Assembly: GCA_038078835.1 (NCBI GenBank)
Contig: JBBTQI010000012.1
Location: 1 to 53,111 of the forward strand
Reading direction: 5' to 3'
Source: Patescibacteria group bacterium
Lineage (GTDB): Bacteria; Patescibacteriota; UBA1384; XYA2-FULL-43-10; 1-14-0-10-43-13
Length of the DNA stretch: 53,111 bases
Shown here: piece by piece, positions 40,815-48,105 of the stretch
Layout of the letters: the number at the start of each line of letters is the position of its first letter
How positions within the stretch are numbered: position 1 is the stretch's first letter
The notes under the pieces: model-generated
Database searches by the model: none
What the model was told of the DNA's origin: nothing
The model's input: only the letters and a program-made list of their open reading frames with translations
Made by a program: the position numbers and the translations under genes

Positions 40815-40852
40815 TCCGGCAATACCATTAATTTTATAGCGGGCGGAATTAG

Positions 40853-41272
40853 TTATTTCTGCTGTTCATACACAGGCAGCGGATATGACATTACCAACTC
40901 ATCGTCAATTGAAATCTCTACCCAATATACGCCTGGTTTTTCAAAATTGACGCTCACGAGCCCACTGATGATGTTCGCTGGGCTTGTTTCATTTTGTAAA
41001 ATAAATTCTTGATCAGCAACCTCCGCAACACTACCGTTCAAATCCGGATTTTTAATCGCTATTTTTTGCTTAAATTTACCTTTGCCATAAATCCATCTGT
41101 TAGCGATAAAAAATTGTGGGATAACGCCGGTGCGGACAAAGTTATCAAATATACCGATAAAAACAGGCTTGCCGCCTTGTCCTTTGGCAACGCCGTCGCA
41201 CAAAACAGAAAACTGCAAAATCGGCTTGCTCTTTTCTTCTGCCGCTGGTTGTGTGGTGTTATCTTTTGCCAT
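40853..41272 (-). CDS. Hypothetical beta-strand-rich protein (DUF6941-like)
   Basis: Pattern LCD.V....GK...IGIFD ... F..PG.Y.V.I.ID recalls DUF6941. Overlaps the upstream protease gene by 14 nt. Confidence 0.7.
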   Translation of the reverse strand: MAKDNTTQPAAEEKSKPILQFSVLCDGVAKGQGGKPVFIGIFDNFVRTGVIPQFFIANRWIYGKGKFKQKIAIKNPDLNGSVAEVADQEFILQNETSPANIISGLVSVNFEKPGVYWVEISIDDELVMSYPLPVYEQQK

Positions 41273-42350
41273 ATTTCTGTGATAAGTCCTTTATAAAATT
41301 CTTCTCCACTGGCACGGAGAAAGTGTCAGTTTCCAAAACGGTCATCACCTGTCGGTATTCCACCAAGTTTTCGGTCAGAAGCCGCTCGTTCCGGTTGTTT
41401 CTCATCATGTCGTCGTAAAGCTTATGCAGCCGCCAAACCGACTTCCAGACTTCGGGGTCAAAACCATCATTGCCCGGACAAACGACATTGAATCCAAGTT
41501 CTTGCGCTTTGTCCGTGCCTATCGCATAACCGTGGGAATAATAACCCTCGGTTAACTGGTGCGCGATATTTCTGTGTTTTGGCACTTTCTTTTTTGCGTC
41601 ATTGACATCCGCTTCCTCAACGTCCTTATCTTTCAAAAGACCGCTCATGTGCAAGAGGTCAGAGGCGTATTGTTTTGCGCTCTGTATCGCGCGGTCATAC
41701 TGTCCAAGCACCTTGAGATCGATCTTCTCAATCAGCGGCATGTATTTCAGAGCTTTTTCCTGATTGTCTTCAGTCAGTCCTTCAATGACCTTCAACGCGT
41801 CTTTAATGGATAGCGCCGACACCTGCATTGTTCGCCCGTATTCATCGGGTATGCGAATTTGAGGGTCAATTGGTCCAAGTTCCGATGAAGGCCCCATCAA
41901 AAGCGTGTCCGCACCCAAAGAAAGCAAAGTTGCGGCACTTTTTGCGTAGTAGGGAATGATTACATTAAATTGCGTGGCGTATTGCCTGCACCAGCGCGAC
42001 ATATTGAAAGCTTGGTCGGCAAATCCACCGGGACTTAACAAAAAGAGATCGAGCTTTTCTTGTTTGCCGACTTCTTGCAAGAGTTCAAAAAAAATTTCCG
42101 CATGTTGCGCGTCCAAAGTGTCGTGAGAATAAAACACGAAAACTTTGGAGCCACGTTTTTGCTGAATGTTCTTGATAAGCTCAATTCGTGCCTGCCGCAA
42201 ACTGTTTTCAAAATTTTGGTTATGCTGGCTACGCTTTTGATTTAGCTCAATGGAGACTGGCAACGAAGCGCCCTCACCGCCTTCTTCCGGTTTTCTTGGG
42301 GCTGGCTCCGTTAGTTCCAGTTTTTTCGGTTGTTTTGGATCATTGCTCAT
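41259..42350 (-). CDS. SDH-family Clp-fold serine protease (Ser-Asp-His, DUF114/S49-like)
   Basis: LDLFLLSPGG; AKSAATLLSLG (Ser); ELGPIDPQ (Asp); YYSHGYAI (His). Confidence 0.88.
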   Translation of the reverse strand: MSNDPKQPKKLELTEPAPRKPEEGGEGASLPVSIELNQKRSQHNQNFENSLRQARIELIKNIQQKRGSKVFVFYSHDTLDAQHAEIFFELLQEVGKQEKLDLFLLSPGGFADQAFNMSRWCRQYATQFNVIIPYYAKSAATLLSLGADTLLMGPSSELGPIDPQIRIPDEYGRTMQVSALSIKDALKVIEGLTEDNQEKALKYMPLIEKIDLKVLGQYDRAIQSAKQYASDLLHMSGLLKDKDVEEADVNDAKKKVPKHRNIAHQLTEGYYSHGYAIGTDKAQELGFNVVCPGNDGFDPEVWKSVWRLHKLYDDMMRNNRNERLLTENLVEYRQVMTVLETDTFSVPVEKNFIKDLSQKYGKR

Positions 42351-42735
42351 ATCGGATTTCGTTATTGGCAGACGGGTAATAATATGGGTTCACCTGACGC
42401 AAATAATCATCAAGGGGGTTATCATTCTGCGGATAAGGCAGTGACTTGCCCTGATATTTATCTCTGTATGCGTCATAAAGCTCGCGGACGTTTTTCTTTC
42501 CACTTTCCGCCGCCGGTCTATCTTTCTGATCGGAAGCCAAAAAGTCCGCGTAAGAGCAGCTAAACGCCTCGCAAAATTTGAGCAGTTCTTCAACTGTAAC
42601 CTTGCGCTTTCCTTGTTCTATTGAAGTAACCGCTCCGCGGGACAAACCGACTTTTTCTGCAAGTTTCTCCTGCGTCATGCCGGCCTTTTGGCGGAAATCC
42701 TGTATTTTCTTGTAGAGATTTGGTGCCGTGCTCAT
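42340..42735 (-). CDS. XRE-family HTH transcriptional regulator
   Basis: RQKAGMTQEKLAEKVGLSRGAVTSIEQGKR. Start at MSTAP, downstream of a consensus promoter. Confidence 0.9.
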   Translation of the reverse strand: MSTAPNLYKKIQDFRQKAGMTQEKLAEKVGLSRGAVTSIEQGKRKVTVEELLKFCEAFSCSYADFLASDQKDRPAAESGKKNVRELYDAYRDKYQGKSLPYPQNDNPLDDYLRQVNPYYYPSANNEIRYEQ

Positions 42736-42758
42736 ATAAATAACCTTATTATGTAAGT

Positions 42759-42798
42759 AATGTAGCAAATTCAAACAAGCGTGTCAAGTTTTTCTACA
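42759..42798 (-). promoter_or_regulatory. Sigma70-type promoter of the XRE-protease operon with an overlapping inverted repeat
   Basis: TTGACA (42787-42782), 17 bp spacer, TACATT (42764-42759). Inverted pair TGTAGCAAA (42761-42769) / TTTTCTACA (42790-42798). Confidence 0.65.
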
Positions 42799-42813
42799 AA
42801 TATACTGGAATAA

Positions 42814-45306
42814 CTAGATTTCGGCCAAAACTTGCGTGATTTTACGTTCCATCAGCTCAATCAGACGGCGGTTGGCGGCGATGATTTCTTCTTCCTTTTC
42901 CGCCTCGGCGACGAGCTGTTTTTGGACTTCAAGCGTTGGGAGCGGGATTTTATATTTTTTTACAAAGTCAGGCGATACTCGTTGAAGTCCACCTGTACCA
43001 GACATTCGTGCTTTGCCTGATTCTCTAAAATCATCACTGGAAGTAAAGCCATATACAATTTCGGGCAATATCCGTTCTGAAGCTCGTAAAACGATAAACT
43101 CACTGGAGCCAAACCCAATACCATTTTTTAGATTCCGAGCTATACCGGCTTTTCCGTTTTCAAAACAGGGGGTAACTTTCGCGAGGAGCACGTCGTTGTC
43201 TGCAAAATAAGTATAGCTACCAGAAACATCAGATAAATTCTTTATCTGTTTTGCTTCAAATTGCATTGAATTTTCTGATATATCTGCCATAGGCACAAAA
43301 GATACTTCTGTCTTTGCAGGCAACTTTGCAATCTGACTTTTCTTGGGATTGATTTCGCATACCTCTCCTAACTCCACCCACTCAACGTCTTTTAACTTTC
43401 TAAGCGACTGGCCAAAATAGCGTCTCTCTCTCTCTAGATTTTTGATAATTTCTTTGGCGTGCTTGATTGCGTTCTGCTTGACCTCAATCTGCTCGACAAT
43501 TTCCTTTTGGATTTCGAGTGGTGGAAGTGGGATTGTGTACGGAAATAAGGATGCGCGCGTAATTTGCGGCTGTGCTGAACCAGTAATCGTCTGTCTAAAA
43601 TCCCCCTGTTTCAAAATGTAGTATAAAAACTTTTTGTTGAGGCATTCATCTTTTGGTTTAACAACCATCGCATTGCCAGTAATCCAGGACTTCGGCTCGG
43701 AAAAATTTATTGTCCCACAAGTCGCACCGCGACAGGTGACAAGCACCTCCGCATCTTCGTGATTATATTTGTCGTAATAGCCGATGACACCATTCGCACC
43801 AAAAACTTTATAAGGACCAGATTCTTTAATGTCCTTTGAGGTAATTGTTTTCGGTTGATACATTTCACAAATTTCACCCAATGCTACTATTGGCCACTTT
43901 TCATTTTTCCGAGCTACAATTTCTTTATATCGTTCGCTAGTTAAACTGTATCCACCATTTTCAGCGATTTTTTCTTTCTTTACCCAAAGGGCGAGATTGC
44001 TCTCGCCCGCCTTCGCCGAGGCTTCGGCGGGCAAGTATTTCTTGCCGTTCTTCCATGCGTCTAAAACAGCCAGGGCTTCCGGTGAGTCGTTTTTATCAAT
44101 CTTTCGTCTTTGCGCGCCGAGATCAAAGCCGTCGTTTTCTATTTTCACGAACAAAAGCTCGTTGCTCTTTTTCGCAAGCTGATTATCAAAAAAGAGAATG
44201 CTCGTTTTTACGTTACCTTTGCCGCCGGGCTTGGCAAACACGCCTTGCGGTAGAGAAACAACGGCATACAGACCATCTTCAACTAATTTCTTCCGCAATT
44301 CTTTATATGCCGAGTCGTTTCGGAAAATGACACCTTCGGGAACAATAATACCGGCACGTCCTTTGATGTTGAGGTGTTCCAAAATATAATCAACAAACAA
44401 TACTTCACTGCGGGTGGCTTGCACGGAAAAACGCTTGTGTGGGCGAATCCCGCCTTTTGGTGTCATAAACGGCGGATTGGCGAGAATGACGTCAAAAGTA
44501 TCATCCCAGCGATCCTCATACGTCAGTGTGTCGTATTCGTATATTTTCGGATTGGGGAAATGGTGCAAATACATATTCACGATGGCAATTCTCATCATCC
44601 CCGGATCAATGTCGTAACCCACAAAATTACTCATCATCTTTTGCTTTTCTTCCGGTGAGAGGCGTTTTTCCGCACTCGTTGGCTCTCCGGTTTGGTCATT
44701 CTTGCCGTCGTGCTGGCGCAAAATGTGTTTGTACGCGGAAATCAAAAATCCGGCCGTGCCGCAGGCGGGGTCTAAAATCGTTTCGTTTTTCTTTGGGGCA
44801 ACAACCTCAACGATAAAATCAATGATATGGCGCGGCGTGCGAAATTGTCCGGCTTCTCCCGATGTACCGACGACATTCAGCAGGTATTCATAGGCGTCGC
44901 CCAAATCCTCGCTGTGGTCAAAAGTAAATCCGTCAATTTCTTTCAGAAACAAATTTAATGTTTGAGCGTCGTTATAGGGCAAGGCCGCACCCTTAAAAAT
45001 ATCCTTGAAAAGCTGGGGGATGTGCGGATTTTTGGACATATTCGTAATGGCTTGTACATACAGATCAAGCCGCTCGGCGCCGGAAAGCCGCTTGTCTAAA
45101 AGTTTGGTCCAGCTGTATTTTTCAAAACCATTGGCAAAAAATCGCGTCTGTCCGCCAAGCTCCTGCGATTCCTTATCCATATCGTCCATGAACTTATAAA
45201 CCAGCGCGGTGGTGATTTGCTCCACTTGCGCCTTTGGATCAGGAACTTTGCCGACAAGGATTTGCCGGGCAGAGTCAATTTTTCGTTTTGTAGTAGCGTC
45301 TAACAT
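42814..45306 (-). CDS. hsdM: Type I R-M N6-adenine methyltransferase fused to the specificity subunit (HsdM-HsdS, two TRDs)
   Basis: Motifs GQFRTPRHI, DPACGTAGFL, NPPF; then two TRDs ending in IPLPPLEIQKEIV and IPLPTLEVQKQLV. Confidence 0.93.
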   Translation of the reverse strand: MLDATTKRKIDSARQILVGKVPDPKAQVEQITTALVYKFMDDMDKESQELGGQTRFFANGFEKYSWTKLLDKRLSGAERLDLYVQAITNMSKNPHIPQLFKDIFKGAALPYNDAQTLNLFLKEIDGFTFDHSEDLGDAYEYLLNVVGTSGEAGQFRTPRHIIDFIVEVVAPKKNETILDPACGTAGFLISAYKHILRQHDGKNDQTGEPTSAEKRLSPEEKQKMMSNFVGYDIDPGMMRIAIVNMYLHHFPNPKIYEYDTLTYEDRWDDTFDVILANPPFMTPKGGIRPHKRFSVQATRSEVLFVDYILEHLNIKGRAGIIVPEGVIFRNDSAYKELRKKLVEDGLYAVVSLPQGVFAKPGGKGNVKTSILFFDNQLAKKSNELLFVKIENDGFDLGAQRRKIDKNDSPEALAVLDAWKNGKKYLPAEASAKAGESNLALWVKKEKIAENGGYSLTSERYKEIVARKNEKWPIVALGEICEMYQPKTITSKDIKESGPYKVFGANGVIGYYDKYNHEDAEVLVTCRGATCGTINFSEPKSWITGNAMVVKPKDECLNKKFLYYILKQGDFRQTITGSAQPQITRASLFPYTIPLPPLEIQKEIVEQIEVKQNAIKHAKEIIKNLERERRYFGQSLRKLKDVEWVELGEVCEINPKKSQIAKLPAKTEVSFVPMADISENSMQFEAKQIKNLSDVSGSYTYFADNDVLLAKVTPCFENGKAGIARNLKNGIGFGSSEFIVLRASERILPEIVYGFTSSDDFRESGKARMSGTGGLQRVSPDFVKKYKIPLPTLEVQKQLVAEAEKEEEIIAANRRLIELMERKITQVLAEI
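43423..43435 (-). repeat. (AG)6A dinucleotide tract in the inter-TRD spacer
   Basis: Plus strand TCTCTCTCTCTCT, encoding LERERR. Confidence 0.8.
44002..44035. repeat. GC-rich REP-like palindrome in-frame within hsdM-S
   Basis: CTCGCCCGCCTTCGCCGAGGCTTCGGCGGGCAAG, read as LPAEASAKAGE, embedded in AT-rich coding sequence. Confidence 0.7.
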
Positions 45307-45308
45307 AG

Positions 45309-47825
45309 TTATCTCATGTATTGATTAACTGACACATAATCTTTTACATATTCCGGCACAGTTTCGCGCCAGCCGTTCAGCGCCTTAAACTCCTGCATGG
45401 AAAATCCAGGATACACGTTCAACTCGGCAAAATGCTTGCTGTTGATGATTTCGCGGAAGCGATCATCGGCAACATACGCTTTCAGATAGTTTCGGATATA
45501 CGGCACATACTTACTTTCAGGCTTGTAGATTGAGATAAACTTCTCAACTTCTTCTTCTAGTTTTTCGTCTTTGGATTTGAAAGCGTCAATCAAGCCGAAT
45601 ACTCGCTCCAAAAATTCACGCCACGATAAACGGCGGTCAAGGTTTTCGCTCTTGCGGATTTTCTCAAGATTCAGGAATAACTGGGGTTTGTCCTCGTATT
45701 TGTCGCGTAAGATTTTTACCGCTTTTTCCCATTGCTCTTGATTGACTGCCTCCTTTACTTGTTCGTCATTCTGGATTTTCTTTCTCGCTTCCTCAAAAAG
45801 TTTTCGGTCAACCTTCATTCCTTCGGTGCCGATTGGCGTTTCGGTTAGTTGCTTGATTTTGTCAGGGTCAAAAATTTCAAACTCATCAATATCAATGGGA
45901 CCGGGGCCGTCTCCGCCGGGGCCACCTTTTTTGATCGGTAATTTTAATGCCTCGTCGTAGTCAAACTTTTCTTCAAAGTATTCAAAGTTGGCGAAGAAAT
46001 CGAAAAACTTGAATTTGTCTTTGATGACTTTTCGCACTTCGCCGTCCTCGTTTTTGTATTCAAAGGTGAATTTGCGCGTGCCTCGTCCTTTCATCTGCAC
46101 AAAATCAGTCGGCGAGAATACAGGGCGCAGGAGAGCAAGGTTCAAAATATCCTCGCAGTCGTAGCCGGTCGTCATCATACCGACGGTAACGCATACCCTT
46201 GTTTTGCTTGATTTGTAGCCGGGCAAAAATTTTGTATGGCCATTGAGATTATTGTTGGCGAAGTTGATCGGCATTTGTTGGGAGTCCTGAATGTTTGAGG
46301 TGATTTGAATGGCAAAATCGGAATTGTATTTATCCGGCCATACTTGGTGAGCCATCTGATTTAAGGTTTGCGTAATCTTGGAAGCGTGCTTTTGGCTGAC
46401 GCAAAAAATAAGCGTTTTACCCATCTCGCCGCTTATTGGGTCTTTGAGGGCATTTTCAATAATGGATTTACAAAATACCTGATTTGTTTTGTCGGAAAAG
46501 AATTTTTTCTCAAAATCGCGTTGGAAAAAAGTTTCTTCGGTTTCTTCGCCTTCCTTGTTTTCCACCATAACGGCATAGCCCTTTTCCGAAAGAAGCTCCG
46601 TTGTAATGTCGGTGCGAGCGTCAACGGCAACAGGATTAATGAGGAAGCCGTCTTTTACGCCGTCAAGCAAGGTATATCTGAATGTCGGCTCACCGCTCGG
46701 ACAGCCAAAAGTTGTGTAGGTATCCAATAACTGCCTGCGTTCCCAGGCGCGCGGATCGTTTGTTGAAAGTTTTTGAGGATCAACATTTTTTAGATAATCT
46801 TTTGGCGTTGCAGTAAGTCCAAGTTTATAGCCGACAAAGTATTCAAAGACGGCGCGGCTGTTGCCGCTGATTGAGCGGTGCGCTTCATCGGAAATAATAA
46901 GGTCAAAATCCGTCGGTGAAAAAAGTTTTTTGTACTTGGCTTGCGAGGCAAGACTTTGAACGGTTGAAATAACGATGTCCGCTTTTTTCCAATCATCGCG
47001 ATTTTGCTTGTAAACAACAGATGTGTAGTCGTTTTTTAGATAGCGGACGAAATTTTTGTACGCCTGATCTTCAAGCTCCAGACGATCTACCAAAAACAAA
47101 ATTCTTTTCGCGTTGCCGGTTCGCAAAAATAGTTTGATGACAGCACCGGAAACAAGTGTTTTCCCTGTGCCGGTCGCCATTTCAAAAAGAAAGCGGTCAT
47201 TTCCGGCTTCCGCGCTTCTTTGCAGAGCTTGGATCGCTTTAAGCTGATACGGACGCAAAATTCGCAAACCCTCGTCGTAGAGATACTGGGCTCTTTTCGC
47301 TTCATCTTGATAACGAGGGTCGTCTTTGAAATTTGGATTTTGCGTCGTGGCAATGTAATCCGCTTCAACTTTGTCGTCGGCAAGGCGTTTGTTGTCCGGC
47401 GTAAATTCCAAGCGGTGCAAGAGTGATTCTTGTGTCGGAAATTCTGTGATAATTTCGGGATTGCCTCGTTCTAAATCCCAAAAGTAGTGAAGATTGCCGT
47501 TTGAAAGCAAGACAAATCGGGCATTTTGGGATTGAGCGTAACGGCGCGCCTGTTCTTTGCCGTCGAGCGGGTCTTTTTCCTCTTTTTTCGCTTCCAAAAC
47601 GACAAATGGAAATCCTTTTTCGTCGAGGAGCAGAAAATCAATAAATCCGCCTTTGGTACTTTCAAAATCCTCACCAAAAGCGTCTATATCTTTCTTGGCG
47701 ATTTTTACGTTTGGCTCAAGCTGGATATTTGCCTCTCCTTTTTCGTCATCAAAAAATCGCCATCCTGCTTCTTCAAGCAGTTTGTTTATTTTTATGCGCG
47801 CTTTTGCTTCCTTAGTGTTTACCAT
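45309..47825 (-). CDS. hsdR: Type I restriction endonuclease subunit R (EcoEI/EcoAI-like)
   Basis: Nuclease motif D..LEAK, Walker A MATGTGKT, DEAHRS, LTATP, MMTTGYD, QMKGRGTR. Confidence 0.93.
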   Translation of the reverse strand: MVNTKEAKARIKINKLLEEAGWRFFDDEKGEANIQLEPNVKIAKKDIDAFGEDFESTKGGFIDFLLLDEKGFPFVVLEAKKEEKDPLDGKEQARRYAQSQNARFVLLSNGNLHYFWDLERGNPEIITEFPTQESLLHRLEFTPDNKRLADDKVEADYIATTQNPNFKDDPRYQDEAKRAQYLYDEGLRILRPYQLKAIQALQRSAEAGNDRFLFEMATGTGKTLVSGAVIKLFLRTGNAKRILFLVDRLELEDQAYKNFVRYLKNDYTSVVYKQNRDDWKKADIVISTVQSLASQAKYKKLFSPTDFDLIISDEAHRSISGNSRAVFEYFVGYKLGLTATPKDYLKNVDPQKLSTNDPRAWERRQLLDTYTTFGCPSGEPTFRYTLLDGVKDGFLINPVAVDARTDITTELLSEKGYAVMVENKEGEETEETFFQRDFEKKFFSDKTNQVFCKSIIENALKDPISGEMGKTLIFCVSQKHASKITQTLNQMAHQVWPDKYNSDFAIQITSNIQDSQQMPINFANNNLNGHTKFLPGYKSSKTRVCVTVGMMTTGYDCEDILNLALLRPVFSPTDFVQMKGRGTRKFTFEYKNEDGEVRKVIKDKFKFFDFFANFEYFEEKFDYDEALKLPIKKGGPGGDGPGPIDIDEFEIFDPDKIKQLTETPIGTEGMKVDRKLFEEARKKIQNDEQVKEAVNQEQWEKAVKILRDKYEDKPQLFLNLEKIRKSENLDRRLSWREFLERVFGLIDAFKSKDEKLEEEVEKFISIYKPESKYVPYIRNYLKAYVADDRFREIINSKHFAELNVYPGFSMQEFKALNGWRETVPEYVKDYVSVNQYMR

Positions 47826-48020: not shown

Positions 48021-48105
48021 TGGTGCCAGAGGAGGGACTTGAACCCTCAAGCCTTGCGGCACGCGATTTTGAGTCGCGCATGTTTACCGGTTTCATCACT
48101 CTGGC
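48021..48105 (-). tRNA. tRNA-Leu (CAA), 85 nt, CCA encoded
   Basis: GCCAGAG/CTCTGGC acceptor stem, anticodon arm CGCGA-CTCAAAA-TCGCG, long variable arm, GGTTCAAGTCC T-loop. Confidence 0.96.

Follow-up and report, generated by a model that had tools for sequence, protein, structure and literature searches.

Three co-oriented genes lie on the minus strand of the window (the whole stretch of DNA analyzed, 53,111 nucleotides), in ORFs at 40853-41272 (139 aa), 41259-42350 (363 aa) and 42340-42774 (144 aa when read from a TTG); the regulator and protease genes overlap by 11 nt and the protease and DUF6941 genes by 14 nt. An earlier note on the bare sequence had described this arrangement, overlaps included, and had named the products as an XRE regulator, a Clp-fold protease and a DUF6941-like protein; the ORF coordinates bear out the former, and Pfam matches to HTH_3, SDH_protease (PF01972) and DUF6941 the latter. 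Below, P stands for the protease, D for the DUF6941 protein and S for the tail of the regulator; loci are given by number (L002 and so on). The features are:

40839..42832, minus strand: mobile cassette, the stretch that blastn finds in common with L002 and L003 (86-87% nucleotide identity), with unmatched flanks
40853..41272, minus strand: D, DUF6941 protein of 139 aa, an all-beta sandwich by Pfam and AF2
41259..42350, minus strand: P, SDH-type Clp-fold serine protease of 363 aa, Ser138-Asp162-His273, by PF01972, alignment and AF2 model
42340..42735, minus strand: regulator gene, an XRE helix-turn-helix followed by the S tail, 131 aa from ATG (HTH_3, E 1e-14)
42343..42504, minus strand: S domain, regulator residues ~78-131, by HMM match to free S proteins
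42759..42798, minus strand: promoter and inverted repeat, a candidate operator, kept in L002, L003 and L004
42814..47825, minus strand: type I restriction-modification (R-M) context, a fused hsdM-hsdS (42814-45306) and hsdR (45309-47825)

The hsdMS and hsdR genes are directly upstream of the trio, and family matches and coordinates uphold the earlier placement of the trio right downstream of them. The block is AT-richer, as had been said, with a GC content of 0.41-0.47 over 41-48 kb vs 0.50-0.54 on either side. Its description as tRNA-flanked is half right: there is one tRNA, for Leu (48021-48105), on one side only. No att-like direct repeats were found flanking the island, and no terminator-like fold was found 3' of the DUF6941 gene (z = -0.3).

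The trio has its own promoter, TTGACA-17 nt-TACATT with an extended TG (42787..42759, minus strand; -35 at 42787-42782, extended -10 at 42764-42759), and an operator-like inverted repeat, TGTAGAAA (42798-42791) / TTGCTACA (42768-42761), which brackets the -35 element and overlaps the -10; both had been picked out in the earlier note and both stand. The repeat, a pattern defined post hoc, is unique in the window, and the distant relative L004 keeps it with a compensatory change in its arms (TGTAA / TTACA). The most likely start of the regulator is ATG 42735 (131 aa) and not, as had been assumed, TTG 42774, because the TTG falls within the promoter and the ATG is conserved in L002-L004.

Protease, DUF6941 protein and S tail

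P matches Pfam SDH_protease with an E-value of 8.8e-21 and 74.6 bits against a gathering threshold of 31.3, and PF01972 is present in all 120 homologues among the matches listed. The motifs AKSAAT, GPIDPQ and YSHG, which the earlier note had taken for an intact triad, are present and align with the same catalytic motifs of the E. coli prophage SDH enzyme; Ser138, Asp162 and His273 are invariant in 19/19 aligned homologues. About 30 disordered residues and a long helix (32-66) make up the N-terminus. The AF2 model (pLDDT 84.2) predicts a Clp/crotonase-like fold, whose nearest solved relatives are the stomatin-specific 1510-N/NfeD protease, ClpP and SppA (TM 0.50-0.67, target-normalised). P differs from these enzymes, which have a Ser-Lys dyad or the triad order of ClpP, are partnered with stomatin, signal peptides or AAA+ unfoldases, and are found with neither S nor D. 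A search of PDB sequences with the protease profile returned two spurious matches only, and Pfam and NCBIfam gave no metalloprotease family match. Against the equivalog model Clp_like_SDH (NCBIfam NF047768) P scores 82.8 bits, below the cut-off of 250, and by this measure the window protease is a divergent subfamily.

D matches DUF6941 (PF22091) with an E-value of 4e-17 and 63.2 bits against a cut-off of 27, and its AF2 model is a beta-sandwich (pLDDT 90.9). The PDB holds generic beta-sandwich matches to it, namely the Wzt carbohydrate-binding domain and PDE6-delta / UNC119 / RhoGDI, at TM of at most 0.55, too weak for functional inference; the ESM Atlas returned only DUF6941 clusters and unnamed small proteins, and tblastn of D against phage (50,697 records) and plasmid collections gave no match. 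Protease-linked members carry a charged N-terminal extension of 16 residues that is specific to them. Relatives of D with 36-42% identity occur singly in trp operons, and members of the broader family stand in dnaK-dnaJ operons: among the other genomes of the phylum having DUF6941, 7/27 have it between or beside dnaK and dnaJ (L086, L091, L095, L101, L102, L104 and L108, four of them confirmed by Pfam). A toxin role for DUF6941 is unlikely in view of these slightly more distant, solitary relatives in trp and dnaK operons. The same contexts argue against DUF6941 as the effector, and would fit a housekeeping or chaperone-like role and a stress switch as well as defence.

HMM matches indicate that the conserved first component of the trio is the ~54-residue tail, S, with its NPY motif, and not the XRE domain, which is found in one clade only. 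That the conserved partner element is the tail described as unstructured in the earlier note is in line with the sensor or substrate role guessed for it there. S contains a helix with the pattern ELYxxY, the motif VNPYY and an aromatic C-terminal residue, and is homologous to free-standing proteins of 59-89 aa encoded upstream of the protease in other loci: an HMM made solely from free S proteins, 26 in number, matches regulator residues 79-130 (E 5.2e-8 in a search of 11,827 ORFs), and an HMM of the NPYY subtype matches the window tail with E 1.5e-9. Most relatives have S as a free protein of this size; one clade has it XRE-fused, and a second clade has, at its position, a tailed protein with a LexA-type DNA-binding domain. 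The XRE-fused and LexA-fused loci form separate clades of the protease tree, with support of 100/100 and 100/99. The LexA-fused tails were tried as S homologues and rejected (no BLASTP match, insignificant HMM scores); they resemble S in position, length and, by eye, an NPY/SPY...EQY pattern only. Neither the window regulator nor the LexA-type proteins of L183 and L187 match Peptidase_S24. The helix-turn-helix of the regulator matches PADLOC R-M Control_protein models (E 1.7e-10); compared with an R-M controller (C) protein, the regulator has 54 additional tail residues, stands first in an operon of its own and adjoins unrelated R-M types.

Conservation, mobility and neighborhood of the cassette

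D is encoded directly downstream of P in 15/80 P-anchored genome loci, a set that comprises every locus of 38% identity or more and all but one of the 16 best. S or XRE-S is directly upstream of P in 14/14 assessable genome loci, giving the order S-protease-DUF6941. In a D-anchored metagenome scan, P is upstream in 39/40 loci with D of at least 43% identity, the remaining one being not assessable for P; conservation of the genes as neighbors, which the earlier note had proposed as a check, is thus what these counts reveal. Of the loci in which P is full-length and preceded by more than 250 nt, 24 in all, 21 have S (11 XRE-fused, 10 free) and three have a LexA_DNA_bind domain and a tail of ~60 aa before P.

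The 2.0-kb cassette has 86-87% DNA identity to stretches of two other candidate-phyla genomes (L002 and L003), with unrelated flanks by blastn. Judged from such comparisons, the three genes form a single cassette, S-P-D, that is autonomous and horizontally mobile. It is rare and patchy in the phylum: the P-D pair is present in 2/401 sampled genomes, and a DUF6941 gene in 0/4 genomes of the same family. The cassette, D and S were each found on 0/34 viral contigs with SDH proteases.

R-M genes lie within 6 kb in 6/16 genome loci (the 15 P-D loci plus the window), and DRT2 lies near one further locus. In the window, L002, L003, L008, L098 and L183, the cassette has R-M genes of type I, II or III as its immediate neighbors. 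Neighbor proteins of trio loci matched 233 PADLOC families (102 proteins), vs 7 matched by 102 neighbors of stand-alone D, a contrast that is not a statistical test because the loci are related and partly redundant and the control was hand-picked. The clustering with defense islands asserted in the earlier note agrees with this excess, and its PADLOC check came out as it had anticipated for a novel system, with no model covering P or D. Some trio loci stand among ribosomal and tRNA-synthetase genes with no defense gene in view (e.g., L005). No toxin family is among the Pfam, NCBIfam and PADLOC matches of P or D; only the helix-turn-helix matches antitoxin models. The cassette recurs beside restriction systems in tiny symbiotic and predatory bacteria.

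Comparison with known systems

Literature searches found nothing on this trio, on DUF6941, or on a ClpP-like protease in anti-phage defense. The Tai system is unrelated: its description mentions no protease (PMC11364771). Searches for PF01972, DUF114 or serine dehydrogenase proteinase gave nothing relevant by title or abstract, and those for SDH-type serine or ClpP-like proteases nothing relevant among the matches listed.

A system called FS_HP_SDH_sah reportedly originates from PICI satellites and has anti-phage activity (Fillol-Salom et al., Cell 2022). DefenseFinder includes this system, which, according to the available part of the source, is named for an SDH-type protease and a hypothetical protein (PMC13532340). 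The likeness to the cassette, at the Pfam level only, lies in a PF01972 protease paired with a small upstream protein on mobile elements, and it makes the earlier note's view that the trio matches no named system uncertain. SDH proteases are also encoded by a Klebsiella phage, in which a 71-aa ORF overlaps the protease gene, by a Shewanella Mu-like phage and by an E. coli lambdoid prophage, in which the gene lies between cI and N. Unlike the cassette, these phage and prophage loci have no DUF6941 annotated beside the protease and no DNA-binding fusion; their small ORFs were considered as S-like and discarded, the NPY motif being absent by eye. The defense precedent is distant because P falls well short of the NF047768 cut-off (82.8 vs 250 bits) and has just 22% identity to its E. 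coli prophage counterpart.

Regulators controlled by a neighboring protease offer a second parallel. In Deinococcus, IrrE is the protease adjacent to the XRE repressor DdrO, whose C-terminal dimerisation domain it cleaves, as far as the available parts of the source go. On the same partial sources, DdrO/IrrE and ImmR/ImmA of ICEBs1 share with the cassette an XRE-family repressor with a C-terminal region and an adjacent protease gene; however, their protease is a COG2856/M78 zinc metalloprotease and that of the cassette a Ser-Asp-His Clp-fold enzyme, and the cassette differs further in that its tail also occurs as a free protein, its third gene is DUF6941 and it has no known regulon. LexA and CI bring in the idea of a repressor inactivated by a serine protease, and in the L183 and L187 clade a LexA-type winged-helix domain precedes the protease gene; LexA, in contrast, has an S24 Ser-Lys peptidase within the same chain, whereas the cassette has a separate Clp-fold protein. 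Type II and tripartite toxin-antitoxin modules (e.g., toxin-antitoxin-chaperone) are like the cassette in combining a DNA-binding domain and a disordered tail, translationally coupled genes, an autoregulation-like promoter, mobility and R-M-rich regions, but the components of the cassette match no known toxin family in Pfam, NCBIfam or PADLOC.

Proposed switch and alternative readings

The cassette probably represents a switch, so far undescribed, that acts in conflict or stress under protease control. From its intact triad, P is predicted to be an active Ser-Asp-His Clp-fold protease. S, by this reading a short, largely disordered tail module, is usually free at ~65 aa and is XRE-fused here. 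We infer that XRE-S represses its own promoter via the inverted repeat and that the S tail is the element bound or cleaved by P; free S may then be a pseudo-substrate or inhibitor of P, and fused S a cleavable repressor tail. Such logic would be like that of antitoxins, DdrO/IrrE or ImmR/ImmA with a different protease class. D may be a beta-sandwich accessory, an adaptor, sensor or substrate, set apart from its stand-alone relatives by its charged extension. The released protease would be the effector, since the cassette has no other output gene. Because of its mobility and R-M-rich surroundings, the role would most likely be abortive infection or addiction in phage or mobile-element conflict. 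A complex prediction for P, D and the S tail (residues 72-131) gave a score of 0.00, which counts neither way. Our reading, that the cassette is a self-regulated switch worked by protease action on the S tail and serves phage or mobile-element conflict, is tentative, and we put it somewhat short of an even chance.

A rival reading is a stress or proteostasis switch that confers stress tolerance, with D as a chaperone-like binder, P-D as a quality-control protease with its adaptor, and an XRE-S or LexA-type-tail repressor removed by P under stress. The position of DUF6941 beside dnaK/dnaJ in 7/27 other genomes of the phylum having it, stand-alone D in trp operons, the pairing of an XRE repressor and adjacent protease known from DdrO/IrrE (in the source parts available) and the LexA-type fusions of the second clade all point this way. 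We nevertheless consider it rather unlikely: the cassette is rare and patchy (P-D in 2/401 genomes, DUF6941 in 0/4 same-family genomes), moves between lineages, adjoins R-M genes far more commonly than the control does, and has no visible regulon under its control. Immediate R-M neighbors of types I, II and III, as in the window, L002, L003, L008, L098 and L183, and the match of the XRE domain to Control_protein models (E 1.7e-10) would suit a companion that controls or backs up neighboring restriction, e.g., by proteolytic restriction alleviation or C-protein-like timing. This is improbable, given that the same cassette stands beside unrelated R-M types and elsewhere beside none, has its own promoter, and in most versions lacks a DNA-binding domain.

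A small S with a conserved C-terminal motif, encoded beside a protease, might also be a precursor from which P frees a C-terminal NPY peptide as a signal or bioactive peptide; the cassette, however, has no exporter or modifying enzyme, no signal peptide is obvious by eye in any of the three proteins, and one clade joins S to a DNA-binding domain while another has a DNA-binding domain plus tail in its stead, so that peptide maturation appears very improbable. A remnant of phage head morphogenesis, i.e., a ClpP-like prohead protease with a decoration-like protein, is already close to refuted, and we give it hardly any credence. It would draw on weak head-maturation protease matches (NCBIfam, 26 bits vs a cut-off of 120; PHROGs, E 0.003-0.009) and on uncharacterised phage proteins of ~135 aa that have the D fold (TM 0.67-0.75), but portal, capsid and terminase are absent nearby, the top-scoring PHROG is a family without an assigned function, D or S is on 0/34 viral contigs with SDH proteases, and D has no tblastn match in 50,697 phage records.

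The self-regulated switch acting through S can be taken further, to a split LexA-like switch in which S is a portable, protease-recognised tail, the Ser-Asp-His Clp-fold protease acts in trans and DUF6941 is the sensor or adaptor; the XRE domain would have captured S in one clade, and a LexA-type domain plus tail would substitute for it in another. That this constitutes a new class of protease-gated immune or addiction modules in candidate-phyla symbionts and predatory Bdellovibrionales is speculative and, in our estimate, doubtful. If a switch of this kind is real, the SDH-type Clp fold would join the few protease classes that remove a repressor or antitoxin, and S would be a small portable tail able to turn various DNA-binding domains into switches under protease control. 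There would be a first lead to the function of two families to which no role has been assigned, DUF6941 and the small S protein. Candidate-phyla bacteria, whose defense repertoire is poorly known, have few candidate conflict systems typical of them, and the cassette would be one. The same reading may also shed light on the mechanism of the DefenseFinder SDH_sah system. With three proteins and a 40-bp DNA site, its predictions are inexpensive to test.

Anatomy of the trio in the window

The regulator, protease and DUF6941 genes overlap at their ends, by 11 nt between regulator and protease and by 14 nt between protease and DUF6941, and all three match Pfam families above the gathering score.

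42787..42759, minus: promoter, TTGACA-17 nt-TGcTACATT
42340-42774, or 42340-42735 from ATG, minus: regulator gene, HTH_3 (XRE type)
41259-42350, minus: protease gene, SDH_protease PF01972
40853-41272, minus: DUF6941 gene, PF22091
directly upstream of the trio: fused hsdM-hsdS gene, then hsdR
48021-48105: tRNA-Leu, single

Alignment of the upstream region with three relatives places the regulator start at a conserved ATG, 42735. The repeat TGTAGAAA (42798-42791) / TTGCTACA (42768-42761) is kept in all three; in L004, the most distant of these loci, it reads TGTAA / TTACA, both arms having changed. The earlier note set the trio in a tRNA-flanked, AT-richer block: the AT-richness holds, GC dropping to 0.41-0.47 across 41-48 kb, but the flanking comes down to one tRNA-Leu. 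The genome is small (878 kb, 99.6% complete), with a single gene each for DUF6941 and SDH protease. At 42814-45306, the type I methyltransferase and a specificity subunit with two target-recognition domains are fused into one 830-aa protein.

Ser138, Asp162 and His273 are invariant in the aligned protease homologues. The protease model (pLDDT 84.2) opens with a disordered N-terminus, which bears a conserved PEKLxLP-like motif, continues through a long helix into a Clp-like core and closes with a C-terminal beta region. Among solved structures, it is closest in fold to the NfeD-type 1510-N protease, ClpP and SppA; no solved relative is detectable by sequence. The protease falls below the NCBIfam equivalog cut-off. 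DUF6941 is modeled by AF2 as an all-beta sandwich (pLDDT 90.9), which finds only generic matches in the PDB and matches uncharacterised phage proteins of ~135 aa better (TM 0.67-0.75).

Gene order and the first component

A profile of 19 protease homologues found 266 relatives, one genome per species. Among the best 80 of these 266, DUF6941 lies directly downstream of the protease at 15 loci (L002-L015 and L017), which account for 15 of the 16 best protease matches, including all of at least 38% identity; the 6-kb flanks of the other 65 hold no DUF6941 gene. A partner upstream of the protease is present in all 14 assessable genome loci, L008 being cut by the contig end. Conservation as neighbours, on which the earlier note made its reading depend, holds. 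A scan of metagenome contigs with a DUF6941 alignment gave 80 further loci: the protease is directly upstream in 39 of the 40 whose DUF6941 is at least 43% identical to the window protein (L149-L188; the exception, L181, with just 99 nt of upstream sequence, is not assessable) and in none of the 40 at 36-42% (L189-L228). Going by record titles, the genome loci come from a number of candidate-phyla lineages and from five Bdellovibrionales, one Pseudobdellovibrionaceae and one MAG each of Anaerolineales, 'Planctomycetia' and 'Pseudomonadales'; MAG contigs may have been misbinned.

The conserved first component of the trio, as judged from sequence, is the tail of the regulator (S) rather than its XRE domain. 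An XRE gene precedes the protease in L002-L004 only, of the 15 genome loci; 11 others have an ORF of 59-89 aa directly upstream, often overlapping the protease start. Common to these free S proteins are a basic helix, an [IVM]NPY[YIL] motif and, close to the C-terminus, an aromatic residue. In a search of 11,827 ORFs, an HMM built from 26 free S proteins alone matches residues 79-130 of the window regulator (E 5.2e-8), and every S-HMM match of at least 100 aa is an XRE protein at the same position; a 19-sequence subtype S HMM matches the window regulator with E 1.5e-9. Against 1.84 billion proteins, the S profile retrieves only 16 cluster representatives, all of 59-80 aa.

Of the 24 metagenome loci in which the protease is full-length and the upstream sequence exceeds 250 nt, 21 have S there (11 XRE-fused, 10 free). 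In the remaining three (L183 and the near-identical L187 and L188), an ORF of 127-129 aa takes this place, made up of a LexA_DNA_bind domain followed by ~60 aa of tail and running into the protease start; the tail reads ...DNPYSS...NNEQY, and is treated as a positional equivalent of S only, because it has no significant similarity to S. In the protease tree, XRE-fused loci form one clade (100/100) and LexA-type loci another (100/99); L153 falls in the XRE clade, and its label as free stems only from truncation of its ORF at a contig end. Free S can also have a separate regulator gene upstream, XRE/MqsA-like in L011 and MerR in L014.

At L014:5850-6825 (Bdellovibrionales), the protease is split into two ORFs of 66 and 245 aa, either through a frameshift, perhaps, or because the copy is decaying; immediately downstream is an IS66 transposase. 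The L007 trio has a further, divergent DUF6941 gene (L007:1041-1445), some 120 nt upstream of its S gene.

Mobility and surroundings of the cassette

The trio forms a cassette. One block is common, by blastn, to the window (42832..40839) and the two closest loci, L002 and L003, in records titled Roizmanbacteria and Peregrinibacteria, respectively: 86-87% identical over 2.0 kb, it runs from just upstream of the -35 element to 14 nt past the DUF6941 stop, and the flanks at L002 and L003 are unrelated to those in the window. None of the four sampled genomes of the window's own family has a DUF6941 gene.

Around the 15 genome loci, 130 neighbour ORFs were examined with PADLOC and Pfam; they include type II and III R-M genes, GmrSD-like and HNH nucleases and a DRT2 reverse transcriptase (L012), together with serine recombinases and the IS66 transposase. 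Ribosomal proteins, EF-Tu and tRNA synthetases are among them too. In 6 of 16 genome loci, an R-M gene is no more than 6 kb away (the window, L002, L003, L008, L009 and L010, the assignment for L002, L003 and L010 being deduced from family counts and pairwise identity); R-M genes also adjoin L098 and L183. In the metagenome set, 102 of the 105 trio neighbours of at least 90 aa (two LexA-tail proteins and one duplicate dropped) match 233 PADLOC families, with REase_II (5 members) and several MTase_II models (4 each) at the head of the list. A rough control of 102 out of 209 neighbours from stand-alone DUF6941 loci, chosen by hand so that near-duplicate trp loci would weigh less and thus not random, matches 7; since the loci are related and partly redundant, this is a contrast, not a test.

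The XRE-fused cassette is repeatedly preceded by the same pair, an EcoRI-like methyltransferase and a GmrSD_N/DUF262-type restriction gene (L002:3291-5513, L003:172-1630 and metagenome loci with PDLC03418 matches). The L002 and L003 copies of the restriction gene share 92% identity, and the metagenome set contains five members. Unlike these, the window cassette is preceded by a type I system.

Stand-alone relatives, proposed working and known systems

Protease-linked DUF6941 proteins are set apart by a charged extension at the N-terminus, ahead of the PxLQF motif: in 38 linked loci its usual length is 9-18 residues counted from the nearest ATG and at most 23 from the farthest (a closer in-frame ATG leaves 3-7 in three loci), versus mostly 4 residues in 41 stand-alone loci, counting the contig-end-cut L181. 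DUF6941 genes occur in 28 of 401 sampled genomes of the phylum, or 27 of 400 without the unpublished genome G154 (locus L087). Among the 27 besides the window genome, an SDH protease is upstream in L098 only, and seven have DUF6941 between dnaK and dnaJ (L086, L091, L095, L101, L102) or beside one of them (L104, L108), Pfam-confirmed for L086, L095, L101 and L104. This placement hints at a chaperone-linked role for an uncharacterised family. The metagenome relatives at 36-42% identity include genes between trpB and trpA, in the order trpC-trpF-trpB-DUF6941-trpA (L190:4998-5426 by Pfam; L192, L200, L205 and L211 by reading), and one after gltB (L217). Residence in such operons makes it unlikely that DUF6941 is a toxin.

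The L098 pair (L098:450-3339, genome G250) is very divergent, without an S gene; it adjoins a type III methyltransferase, and its other flanking gene is RadC/JAB-like by eye. At L085:396-3136, DUF6941 is followed by two co-oriented proteins of 141 and 216 aa without Pfam matches, the last having a relative in L103 (L103:570-1474); this may be another DUF6941 module.

Anatomically, the cassette has the make-up of a self-contained switch. It combines a promoter and candidate operator, a tail module that stands free or is joined to a DNA-binding domain, a protease with an intact triad and a beta-sandwich as accessory. In their working, its closest analogues are antitoxins, in which a DNA-binding domain is joined to a disordered neutralising tail, and the DdrO/IrrE and ImmR/ImmA pairs, in which the C-terminal part of an XRE repressor is cut by the protease encoded next to it. 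By these analogies, the protease would act on S; as there is no further gene in the cassette, the output would be the protease once freed, with DUF6941 perhaps directing it. Mobility, rarity and R-M-rich surroundings lead us to favor, tentatively, a role in conflict. A stress switch seems rather unlikely, yet the relatives of DUF6941 in housekeeping operons keep that reading alive.

The earlier note did not recognise a named system. Neither the protease nor DUF6941 is matched by PADLOC. DefenseFinder includes FS_HP_SDH_sah, a system reportedly from PICI satellites, in work attributed to Fillol-Salom et al. in Cell in 2022. A Klebsiella phage and a Mu-like phage of Shewanella each carry an SDH protease preceded by a small ORF. 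These and prophage enzymes are distant from the window protease (22-28% identity), and the small ORFs do not look S-like. Neither DUF6941 nor S, and hence no cassette, was found at 34 SDH-protease loci on viral contigs, and tblastn with DUF6941 gave no match in phage and plasmid collections. An 'SDH family Clp fold serine proteinase' (L146:4992-5993) sits between a cI-like repressor and N in an E. coli lambdoid prophage, the place that rexAB occupies in lambda; 49 of 5426 complete E. coli genomes have DNA matches to it. Other distant SDH proteases directly follow ThiF-JAB fusion and DUF6527 genes (L059:4293-6010, L072:4271-8384 and L027:4065-5866, in Mesorhizobium, Longimicrobiales and Leifsonia/Streptomyces records), and in L072 the protease precedes multiubiquitin and a second ThiF: a further conflict-system context, of the ubiquitin-like kind.
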